The position numbers and the translations under genes were made by a program. From Patescibacteria group bacterium (lineage in GTDB: Bacteria > Patescibacteriota > CPR2 > UBA1875), in assembly GCA_041737595.1 (NCBI GenBank), contig JBGSRK010000014.1, positions 118 through 64,117 on the forward strand: DNA of 64,000 bases, given 5' to 3'. The notes under the pieces were generated by a model. That model was given only the letters and a program-made list of their open reading frames with translations. It was not told where the DNA came from and made no database searches. This document shows, piece after piece, positions 9 through 57,991 of this stretch. Numbering within the stretch: position 1 is the stretch's first letter; each line of letters begins with the position of its first letter.

Positions 9-100
9 GTGATTGTCGGAATTGTCGTAGTTGACGTTCGCGAGTCCACCGTTGTCGGAGTTACCACCGATCAAGCGGTTCGAAGCACTCTTGAAATATT
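9..100 (-). repeat. Copy R1 of a conserved 63-nt segment encoding FKSASNRLIGGNSDNGGLANV on the minus strand. It is about 88% identical to 460-535 and lies in a reading frame that stays open to the window edge.
   Basis: Direct comparison of 32-95 with 468-531. The minus-strand frame has a stop at 99-101 and no ATG after it. Confidence 0.5.
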
Positions 101-403
101 ATCTTCCTTCGTCCATGCACCATGGCTTCATTGCTGTTGCCATTGTATTTTATCAGAGAGCTGCATCAGTATCAGAACCTCTCATAAAGGAAGACAAGGA
201 GTTTCTTTTCCTTCTTTTGGAAGGGAGTAACAGTCCGTCTACCAGCCGTAACCGATAAACCGATGAGACGTCACCCGTAAACATGATATATGTAAATCGT
301 GGGAATTGCTATTTTGTAGCGAAAGGCTCCGCCTTGCAAGAGCAAGACGGAGCCTTGGGATCCCAAGGAACCAAGTTCCAAGTGACCAATGTAGGCCTTC
401 GGC

Positions 404-1342
404 CTACGCCAGAACTCCCAGAGGACGGACCGCGTGGCTGCGCCAGCGACTGCCGGAAGTGTCGTCCACGACGTTCGCGAGTCCACCGTAGTCGGAGCGA
501 CCACCGATAAAGCGGGACGAAGCACTCTTGAAGAACTCCTCGTACCAACACCAGGTGCTGGTGGTGCCGTCATCCTTGCGCGGCATGTTCATGTAGAGTT
601 GCGGGATGATGTTGGCCTCGATAGCCATCTCCAAGCGAACCTGAGTCGGCTCGAGGCCGAGGCGCTCAGCAATGGCCGCCTTCAAGTGGTCTTCCCACTC
701 GATGGAGGAGATGCCGAAGCGACTGGTCTGCGGACCGTACTGGTAGCGTGCGAGCTTACCATCCTTGCGGAGGCGGTCGATCACGCGACCCATGAAATCA
801 CGGTCCTTGGCGAACATCTGCTTGCCGTCGTTATAGTTCGGCTTCTTGCGGGTGTCGATGAGGACGACCCTTCCTGGGAGAAGGTCACCACTCGCCTTGA
901 CGAGGGTTCCATCATCGTTACGGTGATACAGGTTGCCGTTTTCGGCCTGATCCCAGTACCAGCTCTCGGGCTGGATCTTCCAGCCATCAAACGACGTGTT
1001 ACGCATGAGGACAGTCGACGGCAAGAAGTGGACTTCAAGGCCCAGCTTCTTCCACTCGGCGATCTTCGCGTAACCGTAGCGCTCGATGGTCTCCCGCATC
1101 AGCGTGAGGTCGAACTCCTGGCCAAAGAAGGCCAGGTGGGCGACACGTTCCGCGTCGAGAAGGTTCATGACCCACTCGTCGGGGATGAATGCCGAACTAC
1201 CGTTGATCGCTTGCGCGATCTTGTCCAGTGTTGCCGCGTTGTTCTTGGCAACTTTGAACACCTCCATGGTGACGCCGCGCTTTACGAGCTTGCGCTCAAA
1301 GTCGGCGCCGTCGGATAACGATTCGAACAATTTCTCAGACAT
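404..1342 (-). CDS. Hypothetical protein (312 aa), high GC (about 58%). Its C-terminus carries the FKSASSRFIGGRSDYGGLANV motif. Likely horizontally acquired.
   Basis: Long ORF with GC3-rich codons. An RBS aggagatgg lies upstream of the ATG at 1342. The stop codon sits inside the hairpin gtaggccttcggcctac. Confidence 0.6.
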   Translation of the reverse strand: MSEKLFESLSDGADFERKLVKRGVTMEVFKVAKNNAATLDKIAQAINGSSAFIPDEWVMNLLDAERVAHLAFFGQEFDLTLMRETIERYGYAKIAEWKKLGLEVHFLPSTVLMRNTSFDGWKIQPESWYWDQAENGNLYHRNDDGTLVKASGDLLPGRVVLIDTRKKPNYNDGKQMFAKDRDFMGRVIDRLRKDGKLARYQYGPQTSRFGISSIEWEDHLKAAIAERLGLEPTQVRLEMAIEANIIPQLYMNMPRKDDGTTSTWCWYEEFFKSASSRFIGGRSDYGGLANVVDDTSGSRWRSHAVRPLGVLA

Positions 1343-15091: not shown

Positions 15092-16321
15092 TTAGTGAAG
15101 AAATTTATCTAGTTCTTTAGCTTCTTCGCTTACCAAAAGAGACATCTCGTTATAACCAAGTAAACTAAGGCCATCAAGACTCCTAACACGCGAAAGAGCA
15201 ACATAACCAAGGCCGTAGGTAAAAGCACGAGAAAGGTCAATTTCTGCATAATCAAGGGTCATCCCCTGGCTCTTATGAATTGTAATTGCCCAAGCCAAAC
15301 GCAAAGGGACCTGTTCTATCCAAGCATTTGAATTTGGGTCATCAGCCCCCCACTTAATTGGGGCCGCTATAATTTCTTTACCTTTAAAAGTACGCACAAT
15401 AGGATAACCTTTTTCTGGGTCAAAGCCGATTATTTCTCCTGTGGTGCCATTAACATAACCTTTTGGAAAGTTATTAGAGACAAACATTACAACAGCTCCA
15501 ACTTTAAGTAATAATTTTTCGGGGGCCATGCAACCTTTTTTCATTTGAGTGACAAAAAATTTCTCACCACCAGCTTTCATTTTGAAAGTAATTTCTTCCT
15601 CTGGAATTAATTCTAATCTTACTAAATTATATTCGTCTACGTTTGAATTATGTGTAAAAAGTTTTGTCGGAATAATATTTTTTGAAAAGGGATATTTAAA
15701 ACGTTCTCTTAATAATTGACAAGAATCTTCTGTGACACGTGATTCCCTTATCTCATTTAAGAGTCGATATAAATCATTACTTTCGTTTTGACGATATTGC
15801 TTTTCAAGATAACAAACAGCTAAATCCATCTGTGACCAAACAGCAGATTGATTTATAAAATCTCCTCCATTTTTAACTCTTGAAACTGGTGGAAGCTGGA
15901 AAAAGTCTCCACAAAGAACAATTTGTAAACCTCCAAATGGCCCAAAATCTGTTCTAACTCTTCGACAAATATCATCTAACATATCAAGACGATGAGCGTG
16001 AAGCATTGAAATTTCATCAATAATTAGTACCTTAGCTTCTTGAATTCTTTTAATTGCTTGTTTGTTATGAGTAAATAATTTTTTAATGTCAGATTTGGTC
16101 ATTTTATCTTTGATACCCATTCCTGCCCAAGAATGAATAGTAATGCCTCCTAAATGAGTGGCCGCAATGCCAGTTGATGCCGTAATGCCAACAGGAATCT
16201 TTTTTTTATTTAAATATTCAATAAATTGGTTTAATAAATAAGTCTTTCCAGTACCAGCTTGACCAGTAATAAGAGTATTACGTCCACTGACTAATATTTC
16301 AAATGCTTCTTCTTGTGTCAT
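15092..16321 (-). CDS. PIF1/RecD-like SF1 DNA helicase.
   Basis: Walker A GQAGTGKTY, DEISM Walker B, and the helicase C-terminal motif QGMTLD. Confidence 0.8.
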   Translation of the reverse strand: MTQEEAFEILVSGRNTLITGQAGTGKTYLLNQFIEYLNKKKIPVGITASTGIAATHLGGITIHSWAGMGIKDKMTKSDIKKLFTHNKQAIKRIQEAKVLIIDEISMLHAHRLDMLDDICRRVRTDFGPFGGLQIVLCGDFFQLPPVSRVKNGGDFINQSAVWSQMDLAVCYLEKQYRQNESNDLYRLLNEIRESRVTEDSCQLLRERFKYPFSKNIIPTKLFTHNSNVDEYNLVRLELIPEEEITFKMKAGGEKFFVTQMKKGCMAPEKLLLKVGAVVMFVSNNFPKGYVNGTTGEIIGFDPEKGYPIVRTFKGKEIIAAPIKWGADDPNSNAWIEQVPLRLAWAITIHKSQGMTLDYAEIDLSRAFTYGLGYVALSRVRSLDGLSLLGYNEMSLLVSEEAKELDKFLH

Positions 16322-16507: not shown

Positions 16508-17266
16508 TTATCCGAAGAGCCGGCAGTACAGAGCGTAACCTGTTATACCTAGTACCGCCAATCCTGCGATAAGAAGGAACATTCGTCCTTTTGCTCGCGC
16601 TTCTTGGGCGGCAAGATTGGAATAGTAGGCTTGTCCAGCGGATTCGGGGAAGTACTCATCAAGAAGCATCTCCTCTTCTAATGGACTCATAGTTCTGGAC
16701 TGCATGAACATCGGTGTTTCCTTCCCAGCCGGGTTGGCTAAAAGCAAAAACCACAGAACTTCAGTCAATACCTTGTAGCCACCACCTTGAGCAATGTTGC
16801 GGTTTGAATCCCCGCCCAACAGCTCATTAGACGAATCCAGCCATTTCTCCCGTTCTTCACGGAAGTAATAGCCACCGACAGCATTAGAGAACCGTCGTTC
16901 CCAATCGCTCCCACCTTCTCGCTTGCCAGCTAGATAAGCTAGAACGTCTTCTGCGACTTCGATGCCGTAAGGCATATTGTCGCGCATTCCCATGATGGAA
17001 AGACCACCCAGCTCCTCATGAGGCTTCTCCTGGAAAACTAACCTTTCTGCCTCGGATGGATAGAGCCTTTCCAGATTACGGATGTAGTCCTGGTAACGCT
17101 CCTCTTTGATCTTTGCCATACGGGCGTCGTCCTCGGGTCCATAACTAACGAGATACCTGGCTGTAAGTAGGCCATTCCAGTCAGCCATGGGGTTGATACA
17201 ATTGCACGTTCCTCCTTCTCCTCGGTTTACGAACGGACAACCGTTACACATCGAAAATCCCCACAT
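16508..17266 (-). CDS. Hypothetical protein (252 aa) with a Cys-rich N-terminus (CNGCP...CNC) and a C-terminal TM anchor. GC is about 52%. Likely horizontally acquired.
   Basis: GC-rich ORF. RBS aggagga upstream. A hairpin with T-tract lies downstream at 16436-16460. Confidence 0.55.
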   Translation of the reverse strand: MWGFSMCNGCPFVNRGEGGTCNCINPMADWNGLLTARYLVSYGPEDDARMAKIKEERYQDYIRNLERLYPSEAERLVFQEKPHEELGGLSIMGMRDNMPYGIEVAEDVLAYLAGKREGGSDWERRFSNAVGGYYFREEREKWLDSSNELLGGDSNRNIAQGGGYKVLTEVLWFLLLANPAGKETPMFMQSRTMSPLEEEMLLDEYFPESAGQAYYSNLAAQEARAKGRMFLLIAGLAVLGITGYALYCRLFG

Positions 17267-17460: not shown

Positions 17461-18132
17461 TTATATCATATATTTTTCAGGAAACATGCGGCTGTAAGTA
17501 TAGTTCATTGAAGTTAGAAAATTTAAAAATGGGATAAATACAAAAGGGACAAGACCTAAAAGAGTAATATCAAACATCCAAGAAATATACATTCCAATTA
17601 TCATAATTGGTACAACAAAAGTTGAAGTGTGGTGGTGATAATATTTTTTAGAAACAATTTTAATTCTTTTTGAAAATTCCCATATAAATAATGGCCAAAG
17701 TAAAGTTAACATTTTTGGATCTAGTTCAGTTTTTTTCCCATCCAACGCTAAAAAAAATCTCCAGGTACGGTACATCCAATAAAACGGGAAAAGGCCAAAT
17801 GTTATAAGAGTTAATAAAATAAATTGAGAAGCCGTGATAACAATAACTTCTTTTTTAATTTTATTTGCAAACTCCCCTGCTTTTGCACAATCAACCCAAT
17901 CATGTTTACATTTTTTTGAATCTAGAATTTCCCGACAGATTGGACAAATTTCCTCAGAACAATAAAGGTGATGTAGTTTATTCTTTTTTACACCACATTT
18001 TTTACAATCTTTTTCAGCTGGGAGTCTTTTTGCGCTTTTCCCGGCATCATTAATTATATAGTCAAAATCACAACCAGAGCTCTTGCTGATTGTTTTATTA
18101 CACAAAATACATTTTTCAACTTCTTTTACCAT
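17461..18132 (-). CDS. Membrane protein with N-terminal zinc-ribbon motifs and four C-terminal TM helices.
   Basis: CILCN...CKKCG...CPICR followed by hydrophobic segments. Confidence 0.5.
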   Translation of the reverse strand: MVKEVEKCILCNKTISKSSGCDFDYIINDAGKSAKRLPAEKDCKKCGVKKNKLHHLYCSEEICPICREILDSKKCKHDWVDCAKAGEFANKIKKEVIVITASQFILLTLITFGLFPFYWMYRTWRFFLALDGKKTELDPKMLTLLWPLFIWEFSKRIKIVSKKYYHHHTSTFVVPIMIIGMYISWMFDITLLGLVPFVFIPFLNFLTSMNYTYSRMFPEKYMI

Positions 18133-18807: not shown

Positions 18808-20011
18808 TGTTTGTGTAGTTGGTTCTGGACCTGCAGGGCTTATGTCTGCAATAACTGCTGGCAGTGCGGGACGATCTGTTATTCTTTTAGAAAAAAATGG
18901 AAAAATAGGCCGTAAAATTCTCGCAACTGGAAATGGCAGATGTAATATTACAAATAAGAATATAAATATTTCAAGATATCACGGAGGGGATAAAAATTTT
19001 ATCACTGAAGTAATAAATAAGTTTGATCAAAATAAAACTATAAATTATTTTGAATCATTAGGCATTTTATTAAAAGAAGAAGACAAGGGAAGAATTTTCC
19101 CAGTCACAAATCAAGCACAAACAATTGTGGATGCTCTTACACATGAACTTGAAAAAAATAATGTGAAAATAGAACTTCAAACTGAAGTAAAAAACATTGT
19201 AAAGGAAGATGATTTTATAATTACTCTTATTTCTGGTAATGTTATTTTTGCACGTAAATTAATATTAGCGACTGGTGGGAAAGCAGCACATCAATTTGGT
19301 TCTTCTGGTGATGGTATATTTTGGGCAAGAAATTTTGGTCATACAATTACTCAAATTCATGCAGCCCTTTGTCCTATTGAGGTAAACGAAAGTTGGGTTC
19401 GTGATATACAAGGGTTGAGAGTTGAAGCAAAATTAACTGCTATGGTAGATAATAAAAAAATTGCAGAATTTTATGGTGATACTCTTTTCACCCATTTTGG
19501 GATATCTGGCCCTGCTCCAATGGCATTTTCCGGGGATATATCACCCTTGATAAATAAATCTGAAATAAAAATAATAATAGATTTATTCTCAAATATAGAG
19601 GTTTTAGAGCTAGATAATAAACTGGAAAAAATATTTAAAAATGCAGGTAAAAAATCTGTTAAAAATTCCTTAAGTGGAGTTATCCCCCAAAATCTTGTAC
19701 CAATTATCCTTAAAATTATAGAAATTGATGAAAATAAAAAAGCCGCTGAGATATCAGCAAAATACAGAAAAAATATAGTTAATGCATTAAAAAATTTAAC
19801 TATCACGGTTAAATCAATAAGGCCCTTAAAAGAAGCACAAGTAACAAGGGGCGGGGTTGAACTTTCTGAAATTAACTCAAAAACACTTGAATCAAAAATT
19901 ATAAAAAATTTATATTTTGCAGGTGAAATTATGGATGTTGATGGAGACTCTGGTGGATTTAATCTTCAGTGGGCCTGGTCTTCAGGGTATTTAGCGGGTA
20001 ATAGTATTTAG
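18794..20011 (+). CDS. BaiN/HI0933-like NAD(P)/FAD-dependent oxidoreductase.
   Basis: GSGPAG dinucleotide motif, ATGNGRCN, and a GG..LQWAW C-terminal region. Confidence 0.8.
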   Translation: MKIFDVCVVGSGPAGLMSAITAGSAGRSVILLEKNGKIGRKILATGNGRCNITNKNINISRYHGGDKNFITEVINKFDQNKTINYFESLGILLKEEDKGRIFPVTNQAQTIVDALTHELEKNNVKIELQTEVKNIVKEDDFIITLISGNVIFARKLILATGGKAAHQFGSSGDGIFWARNFGHTITQIHAALCPIEVNESWVRDIQGLRVEAKLTAMVDNKKIAEFYGDTLFTHFGISGPAPMAFSGDISPLINKSEIKIIIDLFSNIEVLELDNKLEKIFKNAGKKSVKNSLSGVIPQNLVPIILKIIEIDENKKAAEISAKYRKNIVNALKNLTITVKSIRPLKEAQVTRGGVELSEINSKTLESKIIKNLYFAGEIMDVDGDSGGFNLQWAWSSGYLAGNSI

Positions 20012-21402
20012 TCTAAATTATCTAAATATGGTTTAATAAAACTACTTCTAGATGGGTGTCTAAGTTTTAATAAAACCTTTGATTCTATTTGTCTTATTCT
20101 TTCTCGAGTAATTCCAAATATTTTTCCAATGTCATCATATGTATGAGTATCTTCTCCATTTAAACCATATCTAAGTTCTATTATTTTTTTTTGTTTATCC
20201 GTAAAATCGTTAAGTAATACATTTAAATCTTCTTTTAAGAGTTTTTTGATTACCAACTTAGCTGTATCCTCAGATAATAATTGTTCATCAACTTCTTCTG
20301 ATTCGACATCTAGTGGCTCTTCTGCCATATTTCTATAACTCTTACTTTTTGCAATTTCGAAGTCTCTAGTTGGTATGCCTTTAAATTTTCTAGTTTTATT
20401 ATCTTTAACTTCTTCTTTTATTGTTTCTAATCTAGCTCTTTCTTTATTTAAATTATCAATAAGTGGTATTAAATCACTAATTATAGACTTATATTCTTTA
20501 ATACGAAAGCTATTAGATAGTGCATTTCCAATAATAAGTTTATCCCTCCATCTGTTTATAATATCTGTGCAAGTCTTTTCGCGTTTTTCTCTTAATATAT
20601 CAAGTTTTCGTCTTGCTTTAGCTATCTCCTCTTTAACCTCAGCAGCTTCTCTTCTTTTTACAATAAAAGTTTTTTCTTTATCTGTTTTTAAATCTTTTAG
20701 TTTTTGTAATTTTTCTTGGTAATCTTTGAGGAGTATGTCCAGTTCTGCTTCAATTGAATTTTCTTCATCAAGAGAATCAGTATCTAAAATTTCTTGATAT
20801 AATTTAGATATATCATCTACATCAAGCTCTCCTAAATACGAACGTTTATTCCAAATTTCATAATTAAGTTTACGGGAAAGAACCTCGATTGCATTTTCCA
20901 AATCTTTTTCTAATATTAATAATTCTTTTTGTGCAGAAATTGTTGCATCGTGTTCTTGGACTTCATCAGATAAATTTTCATAATGTTCAATATTTATATC
21001 TGGATCTTTTTCAGTGTATCTTTTGAATGAATTCTTTATACTATAATAAATTTTAGAATATAAATTTAAATTATCTTCATTAATATTATCAAGTTCTTCT
21101 ACATATTCTCTGATTGCTTCAATTAATCCAGTAATTCCTAATTGTCTTAAATCTTCAACAAATTGAGCTTTTTCAGCATATTCTTCAACAAACTTGTCAA
21201 CTAAGGGTTCATATAAATAAATAAGACGATCAAGCGCCTCTTCGTTTCCAGCTTTTAACTCTTTTAATAAGGAAAATATAGTTTCTGAGTCTCTATAACT
21301 TCTTTCATTGCGTTTTTTTTGTGCTATAAAATCACTTTCGGTATTTTCTAATCCAAGATGTTCCATATACCAAAGTATATTAGTTAAAGTAAAAATAAAC
21401 AA
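20008..21402 (-). CDS. Atypical sigma-70-like protein. It has a region-2.1/2.2-like N-terminal part, a coiled-coil K/E-rich segment of about 250 aa, and a canonical region 4 HTH that ends in RHPSRS.
   Basis: C-terminal ELRYGL...TYDDIGKIFGITRERIRQIESKVLLKLRHPSRS closely matches RpoD region 4.2. The middle of the protein lacks regions 2.3-3. Confidence 0.6.
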   Translation of the reverse strand: MFIFTLTNILWYMEHLGLENTESDFIAQKKRNERSYRDSETIFSLLKELKAGNEEALDRLIYLYEPLVDKFVEEYAEKAQFVEDLRQLGITGLIEAIREYVEELDNINEDNLNLYSKIYYSIKNSFKRYTEKDPDINIEHYENLSDEVQEHDATISAQKELLILEKDLENAIEVLSRKLNYEIWNKRSYLGELDVDDISKLYQEILDTDSLDEENSIEAELDILLKDYQEKLQKLKDLKTDKEKTFIVKRREAAEVKEEIAKARRKLDILREKREKTCTDIINRWRDKLIIGNALSNSFRIKEYKSIISDLIPLIDNLNKERARLETIKEEVKDNKTRKFKGIPTRDFEIAKSKSYRNMAEEPLDVESEEVDEQLLSEDTAKLVIKKLLKEDLNVLLNDFTDKQKKIIELRYGLNGEDTHTYDDIGKIFGITRERIRQIESKVLLKLRHPSRSSFIKPYLDNLD

Positions 21403-21411
21403 TATTTAAAA

Positions 21412-21470
21412 AAAGAAAGACCCGCACTGTATGCGCGGGATCTCCCCTTATACATTAGTGCGGGTAGTGA
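21412..21470 (-). terminator. GC-rich hairpin terminator with U-tract at the 3' end of the high-GC operon 21479-22781. A closely related element lies at 22886-22945.
   Basis: acccgcact ... agtgcgggt 9-bp stem. On the minus strand it is followed by tctttcttttttt. Confidence 0.6.
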
Positions 21471-21478
21471 TTGAGGTG

Positions 21479-21841
21479 CTATGCAACCAGGGCTTCGTCT
21501 GGCAGCATCTTGATGGGTTTCTTCTCCCAGTGATCGCACTTAGGAGGTAGAACGAAGGTTGTGCAGGCTACACCTGGGCTCCTTGGGTTAAGGAGTAGAT
21601 AGTAGGTGTAACGTGAAAGCTGATGGTTCTTCCTTGTACGATCAAGGATCGTCTTTCTGACATTCTTGTGTCGCTTCCCCATATCGTGATGTGAAATAGC
21701 GACATGTACCTCCCGAACATCAGGTTTGTACAAGATAGTTGTCTTGACATTGATGTTTTGAATCTTCTGCTCCATTGTTGCGAGCATCTCCTCTGGCGAT
21801 TGCAAGAACAGCGCCTCCCCGAGTTGTGGATTTCCAGGCAT
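21479..21841 (-). CDS. Hypothetical protein (120 aa), high GC. It is the last gene of a four-gene operon.
   Basis: Its ATG directly follows the stop of the upstream small ORF. The overlapping alternative-frame ORF 21568..21921 has junk-like R/S/C composition. Confidence 0.5.
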   Translation of the reverse strand: MPGNPQLGEALFLQSPEEMLATMEQKIQNINVKTTILYKPDVREVHVAISHHDMGKRHKNVRKTILDRTRKNHQLSRYTYYLLLNPRSPGVACTTFVLPPKCDHWEKKPIKMLPDEALVA

Positions 21842-21940
21842 CTATCGTTTCTTACGTGGTTTAGTGGATGGAGGTGATTTGCCCTTCTTTTGTTTGGGTT
21901 TTTTGTTTTCACGACCTCCACGGTTTCTGGGATGTGCCAC
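21842..21940 (-). CDS. Lys/Arg-rich micro-protein (32 aa), VAHPRNRGGRENKKPKQKKGKSPPSTKPRKKR, with a GTG start.
   Basis: Strong RBS aaggagg 7 nt upstream of the GTG. The stop is immediately followed by the next ATG. Confidence 0.3.
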   Translation of the reverse strand: MAHPRNRGGRENKKPKQKKGKSPPSTKPRKKR

Positions 21941-21952
21941 TAGAGCACCTCC

Positions 21953-22330
21953 TTAGTCATACTCACTGCTTCTGATTTGATCGGCTTTCTCGGTTTCAAT
22001 CTCCCTTTTGCTGAGTATGCCCGACTTGTTGAGCAGTTCATAAGCATACTCGCCAATCAGATTAGATGCAACATCTTCAAGCGAGTTTAAGGGTGGTTTT
22101 TGATTGAGTCCATAATCCCTTATGTTCTCAATTGCAGAATCCTCTGCTTCGATTCCAGATTCCACCCGATCAATCCGCTCAATGAAGGATAGGAGATACA
22201 AACCTCCCTTATTTTCGACGCAGGCGGTCAGCATGATCATTTCAAGATCATAGTCCGAGTCCCCGATCATCTTTATGATATGGGTCATAATCTCGGTTAC
22301 TCTCCCTATTACCCATTCATTGACTTTCAT
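21953..22330 (-). CDS. Hypothetical acidic protein (125 aa), high GC.
   Basis: ORF that overlaps the upstream gene by 14 nt, suggesting translational coupling. Confidence 0.5.
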   Translation of the reverse strand: MKVNEWVIGRVTEIMTHIIKMIGDSDYDLEMIMLTACVENKGGLYLLSFIERIDRVESGIEAEDSAIENIRDYGLNQKPPLNSLEDVASNLIGEYAYELLNKSGILSKREIETEKADQIRSSEYD

Positions 22331-22781
22331 GTTCCCCCCTACTGTGTTTTGCCCTCTTGTGGATATTAGTGAAGTGTTCCAAGATCTTTTTAGAGACTAA
22401 AACGAGAAAATTATTAGTCTCTTTAAAGATGTCTGGATCGATAGCTTCACCAGCAATGAAGTCTTCGAGGGTTTCATGAAAATCAGTAATAGCATCGATT
22501 GGGTCTGGATAGTCCTCCTTGATTGCTTCGAGAACTTCGGAATACCAACCGATCTTCTTGGCGAGGAAGAAGCAAAGTGCCCCTTCATCTACTAGTAGGT
22601 CCTCTTCCAAGAGAAAAAGCCATTCGATGGTGTTTGATGTAGTAATAAGTATTTCGAGATGTTCGTCTACAATCTCATCTGCTGCACCACCGATAATGCG
22701 GGCCATTTCGAGGACCGCAAAGCCACTCTCTATATCACGTACGATTGATGAGGAAACGGTAACTGTTACATCGCTGTACAT
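22317..22781 (-). CDS. Hypothetical acidic protein (154 aa), high GC. First gene of the operon.
   Basis: RBS gaggtgagg upstream. An AT-rich promoter-like region lies at 22790-22850. Confidence 0.5.
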   Translation of the reverse strand: MYSDVTVTVSSSIVRDIESGFAVLEMARIIGGAADEIVDEHLEILITTSNTIEWLFLLEEDLLVDEGALCFFLAKKIGWYSEVLEAIKEDYPDPIDAITDFHETLEDFIAGEAIDPDIFKETNNFLVLVSKKILEHFTNIHKRAKHSRGEHESQ

Positions 22782-22885
22782 AGTACCTCACCTCATTTCG
22801 TATCATTGGAAGTTGGGTCTATTTTATTACAAAATATAAAAGAAGCAAGGGATACATATAAATATATTTAAATATTAGTTAGTAA

Positions 22886-22945
22886 ACTATTTAAGAAAGA
22901 CCCGCACGTGTGCGAGTCAATCTTAATCGCTTAGTGCGGGCTAGA
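22886..22945 (-). terminator. GC-rich hairpin terminator of the EEP gene. The stop codon is embedded in the stem. It shares tatttaa-gaaagacccgcac ... ttagtgcggg with 21412-21470.
   Basis: cccgcac...gtgcggg stem plus a ccgccactaatgatggcgg hairpin. On the minus strand it is followed by tctttctt. Confidence 0.55.
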
Positions 22946-23857
22946 ATCCGCCATCATTAGTGGCGGGAATGGGTATTCGAGCGTTGTAACAACTGGATAA
23001 TGGTCAGATGGGTATCTACCAGAACGACTGTATTTGATTATCTGCCCACCAGAGACCTTCCATTCTGGTGATGCAAATATCATGTCGATTCGTGGTCCGC
23101 CAGAACCAGTAAAACCATGGAATGTTCCAATGGGTTTATCTGATTCTTCGATACAATCACGAAGTAGGTCGAAATTTCTTGCAGACTCGACCGAGTTACT
23201 TCTAAGAACGTTGAAGGTTGATGAATCTGCTGATTCATTGAAGTCTCCGCCAAGAATAACAAGATTACCGTTGTTGTTATGCACCCAACTCGCGAGCATT
23301 CTGACTGACTCTTTTCGCGATTCACTTGATTCATGGTCAAGATGAGTTGAGGCAACTGCAATTGGTTGTGATTGAAATTCATCCCACAGCGTTAGAGAAG
23401 TGTAGCAACGAGGTATTCTATTCCCCCAACTTACTGATTCAGTAAGTTTAGGAGCGTTTGAAAACCAGAGTCTTTCCGTTGTGTTGACCTGAACTCTAAA
23501 TCGGTCTTCACGAAAGAAAATAACTGGGTATCCTCGCCATTGCTTCCCAATACCGGCTGTTGCGACTCGGTAACCTAGAACTTTTGATTTCAGGTAACTG
23601 AGTTGCATCGGGGTTGCTTCTTGAATCATGATGATGTCTGGGGCTACTTCTTTGATGACATCAACGACCATTGTTCTCCTGAAAAGCCAAGAGTCTAATC
23701 CGTCAAAAGCCATACTTGTTCTGATATTAAAGCTCATGACGATAAGCCCATCTCTTTCGGGCCAGACCATCGGTTCAGTTCCTTGTTGTATTCCACTCAA
23801 AGGTACTACTGCAATAAGCAGCAATACTATGGCTAAAAGCCTTAGTTTCCTGCTCAT
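22931..23857 (-). CDS. Secreted endonuclease/exonuclease/phosphatase (EEP) family protein, GC about 50%.
   Basis: Signal peptide MSRKLRLLAIVLLLIAVVPLSG. EEP motifs: IMIQE, GGDFN, and SDHYPV at the C-terminus. Confidence 0.75.
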   Translation of the reverse strand: MSRKLRLLAIVLLLIAVVPLSGIQQGTEPMVWPERDGLIVMSFNIRTSMAFDGLDSWLFRRTMVVDVIKEVAPDIIMIQEATPMQLSYLKSKVLGYRVATAGIGKQWRGYPVIFFREDRFRVQVNTTERLWFSNAPKLTESVSWGNRIPRCYTSLTLWDEFQSQPIAVASTHLDHESSESRKESVRMLASWVHNNNGNLVILGGDFNESADSSTFNVLRSNSVESARNFDLLRDCIEESDKPIGTFHGFTGSGGPRIDMIFASPEWKVSGGQIIKYSRSGRYPSDHYPVVTTLEYPFPPLMMADSSPH

Positions 23858-23937
23858 CGCTTACTCCTTTTCTTGGGAGATTGTGATGGTATTTTAAATT
23901 AATAAACCTACAAATGCAAATTAAACAATTTAAGATA

Positions 23938-25065
23938 TTATTTTTTATTATTAGATAGTTTATTTTCGTGACGTTTTTTAGTTCTCTTGCGAAGTTCTTT
24001 AATTAGTTTTCTAGGATCAGTTGGGACATACCCTCCACGAAGAACCTTTGAAAGATAAAACCTTGAAGAAAGATAGAATAAAAGTGCCAATGCAAGGATT
24101 GCAGAAACACTAACTAATATATTTTCTTTAAGGCCCGCTGAAGCAAGAATAGTGGGTGGGGTATCCCCTCCTCCAGTTTCTATTTCAGGTGTTTCTGGTG
24201 GCACCTCAGGTTGGTAGTTCCCAAAAATAAAATTTTGTGTAGAAGTGTCTGTAGTTACGTTATGTGAATCTGTTAAACCAGTTGTACTTTCCCAACCATC
24301 TTTAAGTATTTCGGTTACAGTATAATCGCCTTGATCAAGTTCAGTTAAAGTAGCTTGGCCAATTAAGTCAGTAGTTACTGTTTCTGAAACATTATTACCA
24401 ATTACTTTAAATTGCCAGCCCGAAAGGTATGACTCACTAGTTTCTCTTATCCCATTATGGTTTAAATCATTATATTTTCTTATGGTTAATGATATTTTTG
24501 GTGTCTCAGGTGTTTCGGGTATTGGCGTTGGTGCTGGTGCTGGGCGAATTCTTTTACCAACTCCAATAACTATGTTTCCACATGATTTTAAAATACCATA
24601 AGCCATAGAACCATCATAATTTTGGTAAATATATGCATCAATTGAAGTAGATAAAAAACTTACAGAAGGGTGACGTTTATAAAGAGGATAAGAAAGACCA
24701 GTTATCTTAGTAGAACCAGAGATGTTATGCCTACCCATGGTATATACATTAGTAGCAATAACCTTATTTGCAACAAGGACCTGGTTTGTCTTTGTTACTC
24801 TACCTTCTTTTAAATTTGGAATATCAGAAATATCAAACCCATATTTTTTAAAAAGTGCTTTAAGCTCTTTTGAGGTTTGATAAGTTTTACCGGTTCCGTT
24901 ATTTAATTTATTAGTTAGTTCAGTTTTTGTTAGTGTTCCACAATAAATTACTGAATTGCCATCACAATCTCTAGCTCCAGCAAATGCAACAGGTATAAAT
25001 AATGAAATATTTAAAAATATTACTAAACTTATTAAAGCTATTTTCTGAATATATATTTTGTTCAT
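23938..25065 (-). CDS. Secreted or membrane-anchored surface protein. Its N-terminal domain is shared with the protein at 47073..49022, followed by one prealbumin/SdrD-B-like repeat, a Pro/Thr linker and a TM anchor.
   Basis: Signal peptide. DCDGNSVIYCGTLT...KSCGNIV is conserved with the paralog. Confidence 0.6.
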   Translation of the reverse strand: MNKIYIQKIALISLVIFLNISLFIPVAFAGARDCDGNSVIYCGTLTKTELTNKLNNGTGKTYQTSKELKALFKKYGFDISDIPNLKEGRVTKTNQVLVANKVIATNVYTMGRHNISGSTKITGLSYPLYKRHPSVSFLSTSIDAYIYQNYDGSMAYGILKSCGNIVIGVGKRIRPAPAPTPIPETPETPKISLTIRKYNDLNHNGIRETSESYLSGWQFKVIGNNVSETVTTDLIGQATLTELDQGDYTVTEILKDGWESTTGLTDSHNVTTDTSTQNFIFGNYQPEVPPETPEIETGGGDTPPTILASAGLKENILVSVSAILALALLFYLSSRFYLSKVLRGGYVPTDPRKLIKELRKRTKKRHENKLSNNKK

Positions 25066-47072: not shown

Positions 47073-49022
47073 TCATTTTTTTAGAGCGCCAAGAAGATTT
47101 TTCTTTGAACGTATCCAGGCAAGTAGTCCACCCGAAAGTGTCATAGATGCACCGGCAGCCCCGGCAGTTTCAATTGGACCAGAAACTGGAAGAGTTTCTC
47201 CCCCACTTGGTGGTGTTACAGGAGGTGTTATAGGAGGTGTTGTTATTCTTTGGTTACCAAATACTGTAACTTCAGTTTCTCCTTCTTCTATCTCTCTTGA
47301 AAGGGTTATCCCTGTAGTATTAATCCAGTCATCCCTTAAAACTTCAGTAACTGTATATTCACCAGGTTCGAGATCAGTTAGCTCTGCAAAACCATTAGAA
47401 TCAGTAGTTAGTGTTTCTCGGAAATTTGGACCAGTTACTATAAACTGCCATCCAGCTAAATTTTGTTCTCCATTATCTTGAATTCTATTATTATTAGCAT
47501 CTTCAAATTTATATACTTGAAGATTAGATTTTAGCGGAATTCTTTGGTTACCAAACACAACAGTAGTATCACCTGAAAGACGTACATCAACAGTACCAGA
47601 AGTAGTAATTCTCCATCCTGACTGTTCAATTTCTCTAACTGTATATGTACCTGCAAGCAAATTACTTAGTGTTGCAACCCCTGAAGTATTGGTAGTAATA
47701 GTTTGATCAACATTATTACCCGTTACTCTAAACTGCCAACCTGATATTAATGGTTCAGTTAAATTTTCTCTAGAACCATTCCCATTAACATCATTAAACT
47801 TTTGAACATTTAAAGAGTATCTAAGCGGAATTCTTTGATTACCAAACACAACTGTAGTATTACCAGCAACATTTACATTTACAGTACCTGAAGTAGTAAT
47901 TCTCCATCCTGACTGCTCAATTTCTCTAACAGTATAACTACCAGCTGTAAGATTACTTAGTGTTGCAATACCAGAGCTATTAGTGGTAATTGTTCGATCG
48001 ATACCATTCCCTGTTACTCTAAACTGCCAATTTGGTAAAAGTGCTTCTGAAGAAATTTCACGAGTTCCATTACCATTAACATCATTAAACTTTTGAACTG
48101 TTAATGTATATGCGGCAGGAAGTATTCTTTGGTTACCAAACACTCTACCAATTCTTGCTCCTGCGGCTCCTGAGGCCACAAGTGTTTGAGGATTTTGAGT
48201 TGTAACTCTATAACCACTCGGTACCGATTCAGCGATAGTATATGTTCCTCCGGCCATACCATAAAACCATGCATAACCCATTGAATCTGTTACTGCGGTT
48301 TTATTTACTCCGTTACCAGTTAGCCTAAATGTTACGCCTTGGTGTCTTTGGTTTTCATTTGAATCCCAATGACCATTCCCATTAGCATCAATAAATTTAA
48401 GAGCATAAAGTCTATATGTTGGAGCAGGAGCTAAAATTTTACCAGGGACTATATTCCCACAAGATTTAATAATAGCCATTCTAAAAGAGCCATCAGTATT
48501 TAGGTATATGAAGGCCGGGATTGAATTTGAAATAAAACTTTGAGCAGGATGTCTTAAATATAGTGGATAGCTTATACCAGAAACTTGGGTAGACCCTGAT
48601 GTCCAATGTCTCCCCATAGAATAAACATTAGAAGCAATTGTTTTCCCGTTTAATACAACAGTATTTGATTTTGTGACATATCCTTCTTTAAGTTTCCCAT
48701 AGTCAGCAACATTGTAACCAAATTTATTATATAAGGCAGTTAGTTGTGTAGCGGACTGATTTGTTCTTCCGGTACCATTTCTTATTTTATTATTTAATTC
48801 TGTTGTAGTTAAAGTCCCACAATAAATAACAGCATTATCATCACAATCTCGTCCACTACCACCATTTACTATTAAAGGGGAAATTAATACACCAGAAAGT
48901 AAAGCTACTGAAAGTACCACAAACATTTTTTTAAATATATTTTTCATACCCAACTCTTTCTGCCAAGACCTACTAATTTTTACTTGACTTATGAGTATAT
49001 CATACCAAACAAACCTTGTCAA
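47073..49022 (-). CDS. Large surface protein and candidate sortase substrate. It has a signal peptide and an N-terminal domain shared with 23938..25065, then five prealbumin/SdrD-B-like repeats, then C-terminal LPVSG followed by a hydrophobic stretch and the basic tail RSKKN.
   Basis: The C-terminus ...ETLPVSGPIETAGAAGASMTLSGGLLAWIRSKKN fits a cell-wall sorting signal. Repeat motifs WQFRVTGN...YTVREIEQSGWRITT. Confidence 0.7.
   Translation of the reverse strand: MTRFVWYDILISQVKISRSWQKELGMKNIFKKMFVVLSVALLSGVLISPLIVNGGSGRDCDDNAVIYCGTLTTTELNNKIRNGTGRTNQSATQLTALYNKFGYNVADYGKLKEGYVTKSNTVVLNGKTIASNVYSMGRHWTSGSTQVSGISYPLYLRHPAQSFISNSIPAFIYLNTDGSFRMAIIKSCGNIVPGKILAPAPTYRLYALKFIDANGNGHWDSNENQRHQGVTFRLTGNGVNKTAVTDSMGYAWFYGMAGGTYTIAESVPSGYRVTTQNPQTLVASGAAGARIGRVFGNQRILPAAYTLTVQKFNDVNGNGTREISSEALLPNWQFRVTGNGIDRTITTNSSGIATLSNLTAGSYTVREIEQSGWRITTSGTVNVNVAGNTTVVFGNQRIPLRYSLNVQKFNDVNGNGSRENLTEPLISGWQFRVTGNNVDQTITTNTSGVATLSNLLAGTYTVREIEQSGWRITTSGTVDVRLSGDTTVVFGNQRIPLKSNLQVYKFEDANNNRIQDNGEQNLAGWQFIVTGPNFRETLTTDSNGFAELTDLEPGEYTVTEVLRDDWINTTGITLSREIEEGETEVTVFGNQRITTPPITPPVTPPSGGETLPVSGPIETAGAAGASMTLSGGLLAWIRSKKNLLGALKK
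47530..48130 (-). repeat. Tandem in-frame DNA repeats of about 290 bp that encode the repeated beta-sandwich domains of the surface protein.
   Basis: Recurring ggaattctttggttaccaaacaca at about 47534, 47824 and 48123, and gtagtaattctccatcctgactg in each unit. Confidence 0.6.
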
Positions 49023-56596: not shown

Positions 56597-57991
56597 TTAT
56601 TTATTTAACTCTTTATTAAAAAAATCATTAAGCTTTGAAATTTCTAATCTTTTTTGTTCCATATTATCTCTATCTCTGATTGTAACAGTATTTTTTTCTA
56701 AAGTGTCAAAATCAACTGTAATGCAATATGGCGTACCAATTTCATCTTGCCTTCTATATCTTTTACCAATATTCCCATTGTCATCAAATTCACAAGAAAA
56801 TTGTTCTTTAAGTATATCAAAAATTTCTTTAGCTTTTTTAACAAGCTCCGGCTTATTTTTAAGAAGAGGGAAAACAGCAACCTTAATAGGAGCTAAGTTT
56901 CTTGGAAATTTCATGACAATTCTATCTTCATCTCCAACTTTTTCTTCAGTGTAAGCTAAATCCATTACTGCAAACAAAATTCTACTTAAGCCCGCAGCAG
57001 TTTCTACAATATTTGGCATATACTTTTTATTTGTTTTTGGATCTGTATAAGAAAGGTCAGTTCCTGAAAATTTAGAATGTTGAGATAAATCCCAATCGCC
57101 TCTGGCATGTATGCCCTCGATTTCATCAAAATTACCAAGTGATTTAAAATTATATTCAATATCGTATGCTTCGGTTGCGTAATGAGCCAGCTTATTATGT
57201 TTATGCCACCTAAGTGACTTTTCTGGAAAACCAAGGGATAGATACCAGTCCCAACGTATCTTCTTCCAAGATTTGTAATATTTTTCCTCATCTTCTGGCG
57301 CTACAAAATACTGCATTTCCATTTGTTCAAACTCGCGAGTGCGAAAAATAAATTGACGAGCTACTATCTCATTCCTGAATGCTTTACCAACTTGTGCTAC
57401 CCCAAAAGGAATTTTAGGATGCAAGGAATCCATTATATTTTTATATTCGAGATAGATACCGCCACAAGTCTCTGGTCTTAAATAAACTACATTCTCTTCA
57501 GATAATGCTTCTGTAGGTGAACCTAAGTTAGATTTAACCATCATAGAAAAAACTTTGGCTTTTGTTATTTCTGTAGAACCACACTTATCGCATTTTAATT
57601 TTTTTTCTTTTCGTAATTTATCTAACTCTCTATTTATAAATTCAATAGATTCCTTATCGGCAGATATCCCCATTCCTTCAAGCACTTTATCTGCCCTCAT
57701 TCTATTTTTACATTTTTTACAATCAATCTGGGGGTCATTAAACCCTTCTAAGTGTCCCGAAGCTTCCCATGTCTTTGGGTGCATAAATATTGCACTATCT
57801 AAACCATAAACATCTTCTCTAGTTTGAACCATATCTTTAAGCCAACTAGATCGAATATTATCCTTTAATAACACCCCATAGTGGCCATAGTCATAGATTG
57901 CAGAAAGTCCGCCATAAATCTCTGACGATGGATATATAAAGCCTCTTCTTTTCGATAAAGATACAATTTTTTCAAAATCATTATTTGCCAA
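56597..57991 (-). CDS. glyQS: Glycyl-tRNA synthetase, alpha2 dimeric class II type.
   Basis: Length 464 aa. Class II motifs FRNEIVARQFIFRTREFEQME and GIHARGDWDL. Confidence 0.9.
   Translation of the reverse strand: MANNDFEKIVSLSKRRGFIYPSSEIYGGLSAIYDYGHYGVLLKDNIRSSWLKDMVQTREDVYGLDSAIFMHPKTWEASGHLEGFNDPQIDCKKCKNRMRADKVLEGMGISADKESIEFINRELDKLRKEKKLKCDKCGSTEITKAKVFSMMVKSNLGSPTEALSEENVVYLRPETCGGIYLEYKNIMDSLHPKIPFGVAQVGKAFRNEIVARQFIFRTREFEQMEMQYFVAPEDEEKYYKSWKKIRWDWYLSLGFPEKSLRWHKHNKLAHYATEAYDIEYNFKSLGNFDEIEGIHARGDWDLSQHSKFSGTDLSYTDPKTNKKYMPNIVETAAGLSRILFAVMDLAYTEEKVGDEDRIVMKFPRNLAPIKVAVFPLLKNKPELVKKAKEIFDILKEQFSCEFDDNGNIGKRYRRQDEIGTPYCITVDFDTLEKNTVTIRDRDNMEQKRLEISKLNDFFNKELNK

Follow-up and report, generated by a model that had tools for sequence, protein, structure and literature searches.

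The window analyzed here is a 64,000-nucleotide stretch of contig JBGSRK010000014.1 (assembly GCA_041737595.1) from a Patescibacteria group bacterium, and it carries on its minus strand an intact open reading frame (ORF) for a sigma factor-like protein (positions 20008 to 21402; 464 amino acids counted from a TTG codon). Few transcription proteins are understood as well as sigma factors, and both the sites at which they tolerate large insertions and the residues with which they capture the -10 element are considered well mapped. The protein retains the docking and spacing features of a sigma factor yet has an expansion of ~170 residues in sigma3 and an acidic surface at the -10 pocket. From these features, we consider it probable that the gene encodes a functional, highly derived, and lineage-restricted alternative factor of the sigma-70 family with a hypervariable helical sigma3 expansion.

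The supported start codon of the gene is the ATG at position 21366, since the 452-residue database copy of the protein (P0001) and the family alignment both begin there. The resulting coding sequence (20008 to 21366) comprises 452 codons plus a stop and begins with MEHLG, and all four family members start at this position with M followed by E, S, or N. Residues 1 to 24 are disordered in both AlphaFold models, and the first 12 codons counted from the TTG overlap an AT-rich promoter and the tail of a terminator. The true start is almost certainly at ATG 21366 rather than at TTG 21402, and residue numbers throughout refer to the 452-residue protein. The GC content of the gene is 27%, compared with a window mean of about 31%, and the chance of an intact 452-codon ORF in DNA of 27% GC, estimated from stop-codon frequencies, is ~1e-17. 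The gene and the parts of its product, listed from the N terminus with the evidence from hidden Markov models (HMMs), AlphaFold2 (AF2) models with their predicted local distance difference test (pLDDT) scores, and other sources, are as follows.

20008..21366, minus strand: coding sequence of the sigma-like protein (ORF list; P0001 of 452 amino acids; family starts; N-terminal disorder in the models)

20992..21294, minus strand: sigma2-like domain, residues 25 to 125, with helices at residues 27 to 38, 42 to 66 (region 2.1), 70 to 90 (region 2.2), and 101 to 120 (position of regions 2.3/2.4) (hhalign; PDB profile; HMM domain of 36.7 bits; AF2 pLDDT of 87 to 96)

21103..21156, minus strand: putative core-binding motif of region 2.2, EDLRQLGITGLIEAIREY, residues 71 to 88 (alignment column table)

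21064..21102, minus strand: acidic 2.2-2.3 loop VEELDNINEDNLN, residues 89 to 101, standing in for the canonical aromatic and basic FDYxKGYKFSTY that builds the -10 base pockets

21007..21063, minus strand: helix at the position of regions 2.3/2.4, LYSKIYYSIKNSFKRYTEK, residues 102 to 120 (MAFFT, hhalign, and HMMER in one register)

20977..21006, minus strand: remnant of region 3.0, DPDINIEHYE, residues 121 to 130, aligned to TIRIPVHMVE; its Glu, equivalent to E458, is invariant in the family

20341..20979, minus strand: hypervariable long-helix module in the sigma3 segment, residues 130 to 342 (213 amino acids), with helices at residues 126 to 177, 183 to 194, 197 to 228, 234 to 277, and 287 to 327 (AF2 pLDDT of about 78 to 87)

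20269..20340, minus strand: SYRNMAEEPL motif, which aligns to SQEPVSLETPIG, and acidic region 3.2-like linker, residues 343 to 366, with a net charge of -8

20011..20268, minus strand: sigma4 domain, residues 367 to 452, comprising region 4.1, the helix-turn-helix of region 4.2 with recognition helix TRERIRQIE, and the tail KLRHPSRSSFIKPYLD (Pfam; PDB; Foldseek)

The distribution of this architecture, a question raised by the original prediction, was followed with an exhaustive phmmer search of 1.84 billion representative proteins, which yielded three true relatives and thus a family of four. The relatives are 23% to 35% identical to the protein. P0121 (313 amino acids; E value, 7e-36) matches query residues 31 to 154 and region 4, and P0144 (430 amino acids) and P0177 (481 amino acids) each match in a single stretch, at residues 33 to 451 and 23 to 453, respectively. 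Their middle segments range from 65 to 222 amino acids and are mutually unalignable; likewise, the expanded segments of the three long family members could not be significantly aligned (Smith-Waterman z scores, -0.3 to 2.8). The relatives come from SRA- or ENA-derived contigs of 1.5 to 4 kb and 35% to 43% GC, which offer no useful gene context. The compact P0121 is collinear in one stretch with the canonical sigma HMM from region 1.2 to region 4.2 (108 bits), and its residues 30 to 309 match the PHROG 351 sigma family. Because of this collinearity, the ancestral layout of the family would be an ordinary sigma2-sigma3-sigma4.

The C-terminal ~85 residues match Pfam family Sigma70_r4 (PF04545) with an E value of 6.4e-15 (54.8 bits; cutoff, 24.1). 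Among PDB sequences, region 4 of Staphylococcus aureus SigA scored 73.5 bits (E value, 1.6e-19) with KLRHPSRS aligned, and the alignment to region 4 of both S. aureus and Bacillus subtilis SigA extends through KLRHPSRS..K.(F/Y)(L/M)D. The equivalents of R584, E585, R586, R588, and Q589 are identical to the canonical -35 contacts of RpoD, and the sigma4 model superposes on SigA region 4 with a root mean square deviation of 1.2 to 1.3 Å in Foldseek. The sigma-70 region 4.2 helix-turn-helix with the RpoD-like ending KLRHPSRS, which had been noticed in the original prediction, is thus borne out. Every significant Foldseek match in PDB was a sigma factor from an RNA polymerase (RNAP) holoenzyme complex, and a search of the viral structure library BFVD added nothing. 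The sigma-70 superfamily model TIGR02937 was passed in two stretches (52.1 bits; cutoff, 42.9). The NCBIfam models for MzaA, RpoD, SigA, and RpoS match only residues ~370 to 460, with 45 to 90 bits against cutoffs of 350 to 800.

The N-terminal region is related to sigma2. When it was compared with 30 canonical sigma factors by hhalign, 105 columns that begin at the end of region 1.2 and reach the start of region 3.0 were aligned with a probability of 95.8% and an E value of 8e-9. A profile of the four family N termini searched against PDB matched a SigH-type extracytoplasmic function (ECF) sigma factor (E value, 6.5e-6) and a SigB-type group 3 sigma factor (4e-5); alignments to SigA, FliA, and SigI were longer but weaker, and the top matches were all sigma factors. 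The NCBIfam models for SigB, SigF, and SigG weakly touch residues 29 to 105. These comparisons confirm that the core-binding helix proposed for this part of the protein resembles regions 2.1 and 2.2. Region 2.2 shows invariant equivalents of D403 and L404 across all four family members and equivalents of Q406 and G408 in three; we take these four to be core-binding positions from mutational work on sigma-70.

MAFFT, hhalign, and HMMER (the last via P0121) share a single register, in which helix 102 to 120 falls on regions 2.3/2.4 and DPDINIEHYE falls on TIRIPVHMVE. The hydrophobic positions of the helix are retained (equivalents of I435, I439, and I443). The equivalents of Y430, W433, W434, Q437, T440, and R441 are N, S, K, Y, K, and N, respectively, and these positions vary among the relatives. 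The loop preceding the helix, VEELDNINEDNLN, has a net charge of -5 and one aromatic residue, and the loops of the relatives have net charges of -5, -1, and -4, whereas the canonical loop has a net charge of mostly 0 to +2 (range, -2 to +2) and mostly 3 to 5 aromatic residues (range, 2 to 5) in 29 of the 30 canonical sigma factors, P0186 being gapped there. The earlier claim that the -10 recognition and melting regions are absent was right in effect, in that the canonical residues for these functions are gone. As judged from the sequence, a sigma2 scaffold is present and its -10 chemistry is noncanonical.

The middle of the protein had been described as about 250 residues of K/E-rich, heptad-like sequence taking the place of regions 2.3 to 3. 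Its helical and charged character was confirmed, as this part is all-helical in both AlphaFold models and 44% of its residues are charged (K plus R, 22%; D plus E, 22%). It is modeled as four helices of 32 to 52 residues and one of 12 residues (183 to 194). The heptads, however, are patchy and do not amount to one continuous coiled coil: a hydrophobic periodicity of 3.5 residues is significant only around residues 197 to 231 and 281 to 322. "Long amphipathic helices" would be a safer description than "coiled coil." The AF2 evidence consists of secondary structure and pLDDT, and the second model, built with 34 sequences, has a mean pLDDT of 79.7 (87 to 96 in sigma2, 88 to 98 in sigma4, and ~78 to 87 in the long helices). 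The notion that this stretch replaces regions 2.3 to 3 did not hold, since a helix at the 2.3/2.4 position, the invariant Glu of region 3.0, and an acidic 3.2 linker of canonical length are present and the expansion lies within sigma3. Internal duplication was considered as the origin of the helical module and rejected, as no internal repeats were found.

The location of the expansion follows from three spacings measured on the combined alignment of the family and the canonical sigma factors.

D403 to E458: 58 residues in the protein, 62 in P0121, 57 in P0144, and 60 in P0177; canonical median, 55

E458 to the proline of ETPIG: 221 residues in the protein, 73 in P0121, 189 in P0144, and 230 in P0177; canonical median, 52, and maximum, 81

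Proline of ETPIG to LRFG (region 4.1): 47 residues in the protein, 47 in P0121, 45 in P0144, and 50 in P0177; canonical median, 51

Because only the spacing between E458 and the proline varies, the extra ~170 residues lie wholly inside the sigma3 segment. Such a pattern would be expected of a surface-exposed insertion in a factor whose linker must still span RNAP, and the distances that have to fit RNAP geometry are conserved. Beyond the expansion, the SYRNMAEEPL motif aligns to SQEPVSLETPIG, at the end of region 3.1 and the start of region 3.2, and Y344, P351, L352, and V359 do not vary among the family members. The motif is followed by DVESEEVDEQLLSED, and the 24-residue stretch as a whole, with its net charge of -8, resembles the canonical sigma finger.

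Other searches for family members were less productive. A word-index search was dominated by region 4 matches when the query was the full protein; without region 4, it recovered only P0001 and P0177, and with sigma2 alone, it gave no matches, not even to the query's own proteins, which reflects a limit of the index and not absence. Pattern scans of GTDB species representatives (among which the source genome is not included), IMG/VR, and JGI metagenomes revealed no further member, and the four-sequence family alignment had no stretch conserved enough for searching. A phage or plasmid origin was unsupported: BFVD gave nothing, tblastn against phages gave only weak matches of regions 2.1 to 2.2 to ordinary sigma-28-type sigma factors, and plasmid records gave none.

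Two other sets of database proteins were encountered. In P0122 to P0126 and P0128, a sigma3-sigma4 segment is repeated at least two times (P0123, for example, duplicates PSPEEIAKEM...KLRHPS), and these proteins look like artifacts of metagenome assembly or gene calling rather than real sigma factors with more than one region 4. The sigma-like proteins P0216 (387 amino acids) and P0232 (456 amino acids) have an RpoD-type region 4 with KLRHPSRS or KLRHPNRT and strongly diverged regions 2.3/2.4 (e.g., KFSTFAYPCMFGEVTHSF), and their composition bias suggests AT-rich genomes. The combination of a derived sigma2 and a sigma4 resembling that of RpoD may thus be a wider pattern.

The sigma-like gene is bounded on both sides. 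An HI0933-like flavoprotein gene lies downstream in convergent orientation and overlaps the 3' end of the sigma-like gene by 4 bp, and the following feature is found upstream.

21421..21439, minus strand: intrinsic-terminator-like hairpin and T-run immediately upstream of the gene (terminator scan; stem of 7 pairs, 6 of them GC, and then TCTTTCTTTT)

From the upstream hairpin and the overlapping convergent gene downstream, the sigma-like gene is predicted to be monocistronic. The sequence preceding its ATG (21364 to 21402) reads TTGTTT-17 nt-TATACT-7 nt-ATG and contains no Shine-Dalgarno-like sequence, a layout compatible with an mRNA that may be leaderless or nearly so. The -35-like hexamer TTGTTT is weak and absent from the promoter scan list.

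The hairpin also separates the gene from a block of higher GC content directly upstream (21440 to 23900; 43% GC). Three hypothetical ORFs in the block (21479 to 21841, 21953 to 22330, and 22317 to 22781) have no Pfam, PADLOC, or PHROG match, and positions 22931 to 23857 encode an Exo_endo_phos family protein. The arrangement is repeated on an independent Logan contig (L003) and is therefore not a misassembly; the block is probably a horizontally acquired island. In addition to the flavoprotein and the Exo_endo_phos protein, the neighbors of the sigma-like gene include an NT5C nucleotidase.

The window as a whole is part of a cellular bacterial chromosome, encoding SecA, a class A penicillin-binding protein, GluRS, GlyRS, MurA, a P-type ATPase, three tRNAs, and a class II tRNA synthetase of the Asp/Lys/Asn type. 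At 90% identity, SecA, MurA, and the P-type ATPase each form a cluster of one, and GluRS clusters only with a 57-residue fragment; the source organism is poorly sampled. Together, the low GC content and the gene content give the impression of a candidate phyla radiation (CPR)/Patescibacteria-like genome. A second ORF of 464 amino acids with a TTG start on the same strand (56597 to 57991) was considered as a possible paralogue and rejected, as its product is glycyl-tRNA synthetase, which is unrelated to the sigma-like protein and matches it in length by coincidence.

Several other parts of the window stand out in composition or content. Positions 1 to 1500 form a block of 50% to 58% GC within the ~31% GC genome; the long ORFs at 404 to 1342 (minus strand) and 434 to 1318 (plus strand) in this block belong to no Pfam family, and positions 91 to 231 (minus strand) give a subthreshold Rfam match to RT-16 RNA, a reverse transcriptase-associated motif (37 bits; gathering threshold, 50; E value, 0.002). 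It may represent either a structured RNA or some foreign element. An isolated ORF of 50% GC (16508 to 17266; 252 amino acids) with a Cys-rich N terminus and a C-terminal transmembrane helix has no family match and is flanked by AT-rich native genes for a Pif1-like helicase (15092 to 16321) and a DUF4234 protein (17461 to 18132). The ORFs at 23938 to 25065 and 47073 to 49022 encode surface protein-like products with prealbumin-fold repeats of the SdrD_B/SpaA type, one of them with a C-terminal transmembrane anchor. PEGA-domain and CAP-domain proteins are also encoded in the window.

If the sigma-like protein acts as an alternative sigma factor, the following holoenzyme can be envisaged. The sigma2 scaffold would dock on the beta-prime clamp helices via the retained DLxQxG motif of region 2.2, and the acidic 3.2-like linker of canonical length would thread the active-site cleft and the RNA exit channel. 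Sigma4, sitting on the beta flap, would read a TTGACA-like -35 hexamer with contacts identical to those of RpoD. The expanded sigma3, with ~210 residues of long amphipathic helices, would extend from the upstream, solvent-exposed side of the holoenzyme. Since the length and sequence of the module vary freely among the relatives, it would more likely be a spacer, docking, steric, or oligomerization arm than a specific reader of DNA. A role as a specific DNA-reading or partner-binding domain appears unlikely, given this variability and its near absence from P0121. The -10 element would not be read by the canonical aromatic and basic pockets; some other downstream element could be recognized, or promoter opening could need a partner. 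The invariant Glu of region 3.0 suggests an extended -10-like contact.

A number of observations weigh against a functional alternative sigma factor. Because the -10 capture and melting residues have been exchanged and the pocket loop is acidic, it is doubtful that the protein melts promoters in the standard way. Sigma3 could not be detected by sequence in the protein, as the second HMM domain was noise. The 2.3/2.4/3.0 segment taken alone falls in the right place and register with an hhalign probability of 0.8%, which is not significant; in this respect, profile comparison left standing the original view that the protein is not simply a divergent RpoD. This segment was assigned by collinearity and with AF2 models for which the alignment itself served as a partial guide. 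The case is built on a family of four sequences, for which conservation statistics are weak, and the genomic context gives no pointer to a role: no regulon, partner, anti-sigma, or RNAP gene was found nearby, and the cognate beta and beta-prime subunits are not encoded in the window.

The losses in sigma2 could also be those of a sigma mimic that does not initiate transcription, i.e., a decoy, an RNAP-sequestering factor, or a repressor that binds core RNAP and parks at -35-like sites or competes with the housekeeping sigma factor but cannot open DNA. None of the canonical residues for -10 capture and melting is retained, the loop at the pocket is acidic, the 2.3/2.4 sequence is unrecognizable, and sigma4 would compete for the -35 hexamers of RpoD. 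However, the acidic 3.2 linker, its length, and the region 3.0 Glu have been kept in a family that otherwise diverges freely, and a pure decoy would hardly need to retain an active-site-proximal finger. Many bona fide alternative sigma factors, such as ECF and phage sigma factors, also lack the group 1 residues of region 2.3. No anti-sigma domain (zf-HC2/RsrA-like, RskA, FlgM, or Rsd) was found in Pfam and NCBIfam scans at E values up to 10, and nothing positive supports the anti-sigma or decoy role, one of three functions originally guessed for the protein, among which a highly derived alternative sigma factor fits best. We regard a mimic as unlikely.

The same combination of lost -10 determinants and intact docking modules could also be that of one half of a two-component initiation system, in which this protein provides core docking and -35 reading, a partner provides -10 recognition and melting, and the helical arm is perhaps the docking site. 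Such a division has a precedent in SigO-RsoA of B. subtilis, a two-subunit sigma factor (PMC10141391), and the helical module is large and exposed. Against this, the module is conserved in neither sequence nor length and P0121 is almost without it, which argues against a specific docking surface. Moreover, there is no cotranscribed candidate partner, with the terminator upstream and the convergent gene downstream, and the small ORFs nearby have no matches. A two-component system thus appears less probable still than a mimic.

It is very improbable that the gene encodes the housekeeping group 1 sigma factor of the organism, extremely diverged in a fast-evolving, reduced genome. The recognition helix of region 4.2 and the HPSRS tail are group 1-like, tblastn with canonical RpoD found no second sigma gene in the 64-kb window (a fraction of the genome), and the organism is poorly sampled, its SecA, GluRS, MurA, and P-type ATPase having practically no cluster partners at 90% identity. 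The RpoD equivalog models NF005643, NF006666, and NF004208, however, reach only 79 to 81 bits, via region 4 only, against cutoffs of 500 to 572, in agreement with the original prediction that this is not an ordinary primary sigma factor. Regions 1.2 and 2.3 to 2.4, which are nearly invariant in primary sigma factors, are lost. The closest relative is 35% identical and one of only three in 1.84 billion proteins, whereas many orthologues would be expected of a housekeeping gene, and the gene lies outside the usual rpsU-dnaG-rpoD context. A decaying rpoD paralogue or mobile-element remnant without current function, as might be imagined from the rarity of the family, its hypervariable middle, and the compositionally foreign blocks adjoining the gene, is the least credible alternative, because the ORF is intact in very AT-rich DNA and forms its own terminator-bounded unit, and because conservation is strongly nonuniform, being focused on D403/L404, E458, the PPL motif, and region 4.2 with constrained linker lengths.

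An alternative sigma factor of the sigma-70 family therefore remains our preferred reading. A further step, which we put forward tentatively and as less likely true than false, is that the protein represents an undescribed sigma-70 class in which sigma3 has become a freely evolving helical arm and the -10 capture surface has been abolished. Such a factor would dock on core RNAP and read the -35 element, acting either as a mimic that sequesters or poises RNAP or as an initiator with a noncanonical or partner-assisted mode of opening via the arm. A true initiator of this kind would imply an alternative route to promoter opening; otherwise, the protein would be a natural sigma-derived regulator of RNAP. 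In either case, it illustrates how rare orphan regulators of poorly sampled AT-rich bacteria escape domain annotation: Pfam calls only Sigma70_r4 in the protein and in all three relatives, with Sigma70_r2 silent.

Among known systems, the protein can be compared first with the group 1 factors RpoD and SigA, with which it shares a sigma4 domain that is 45% to 53% identical, an identical TRERIRQIE helix, the KLRHPSRS tail, the domain order, and an acidic 3.2 linker of the same length. It differs from them in having no region 1.1 and no recognizable region 1.2, in the loss of the functional residues of regions 2.3/2.4, in a sigma3 that is about four-fold larger, and in scoring far below the cutoffs of RpoD models.

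The best matches of the N-terminal part are to group 3 factors (SigB/F/G, FliA/sigma-28, and phage sigma-28-like proteins), namely, TIGR02980 (residues 54 to 104), NF004052 (residues 29 to 105), FliA (1rp3), a SigB-type factor (8x6g), and, by tblastn, a Bacillus phage sigma-28-type factor. The sigma3 domain occurs only in groups 1 to 3. Group 3 factors likewise have a sigma2-sigma3-sigma4 layout without region 1.1, and P0121, with 313 amino acids, is group 3-like in size. The protein departs from this group in its TIGR02980 score (36.8 bits over residues 54 to 104 only; cutoff, 234.35), its group 1-like region 4 tail, its extra helical module of ~170 amino acids, and its acidic 2.2-2.3 loop.

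Proteobacterial RpoD contains a nonconserved region (NCR), a lineage-specific, mostly helical, surface-exposed insertion of variable length that leaves core docking undisturbed. The sigma-70 NCR offers the nearest analogy to the expansion described here, in function only. It sits between regions 1.2 and 2.1, whereas the expansion falls within sigma3, bounded by region 3.0 and the junction of regions 3.1 and 3.2. A limited full-text literature search found no description of a large sigma3 insertion, and literature searches on sigma3 insertions, CPR sigma factors, and MzaA yielded no direct precedent.

MzaA of the MZA antiphage system, which is likewise a long protein of sigma type whose region 4 resembles that of RpoD, was the top NCBIfam and PADLOC match. 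Membership in this system was rejected, as the match covers region 4 only (model positions 620 to 716 of 726; 90.4 bits against a cutoff of 800; residues 372 to 448 in PADLOC). None of the four neighboring hypothetical ORFs tested had any PADLOC match, and hence no gene for MzaB to MzaE was found among them.

Phage T4 gp55, which works with gp33, is a partner-dependent member of the sigma family. Together with SigO-RsoA, it serves as a precedent for sigma family proteins that lack the full set of promoter recognition and melting determinants and rely on a partner. In contrast to these systems, to which no sequence relationship was detected, the protein has no adjacent partner gene and carries sigma2 and sigma4 in one chain. 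As far as the alignments indicate, its closest known counterparts are group 1 factors for sigma4 and group 3 factors for the N-terminal part and the overall layout.

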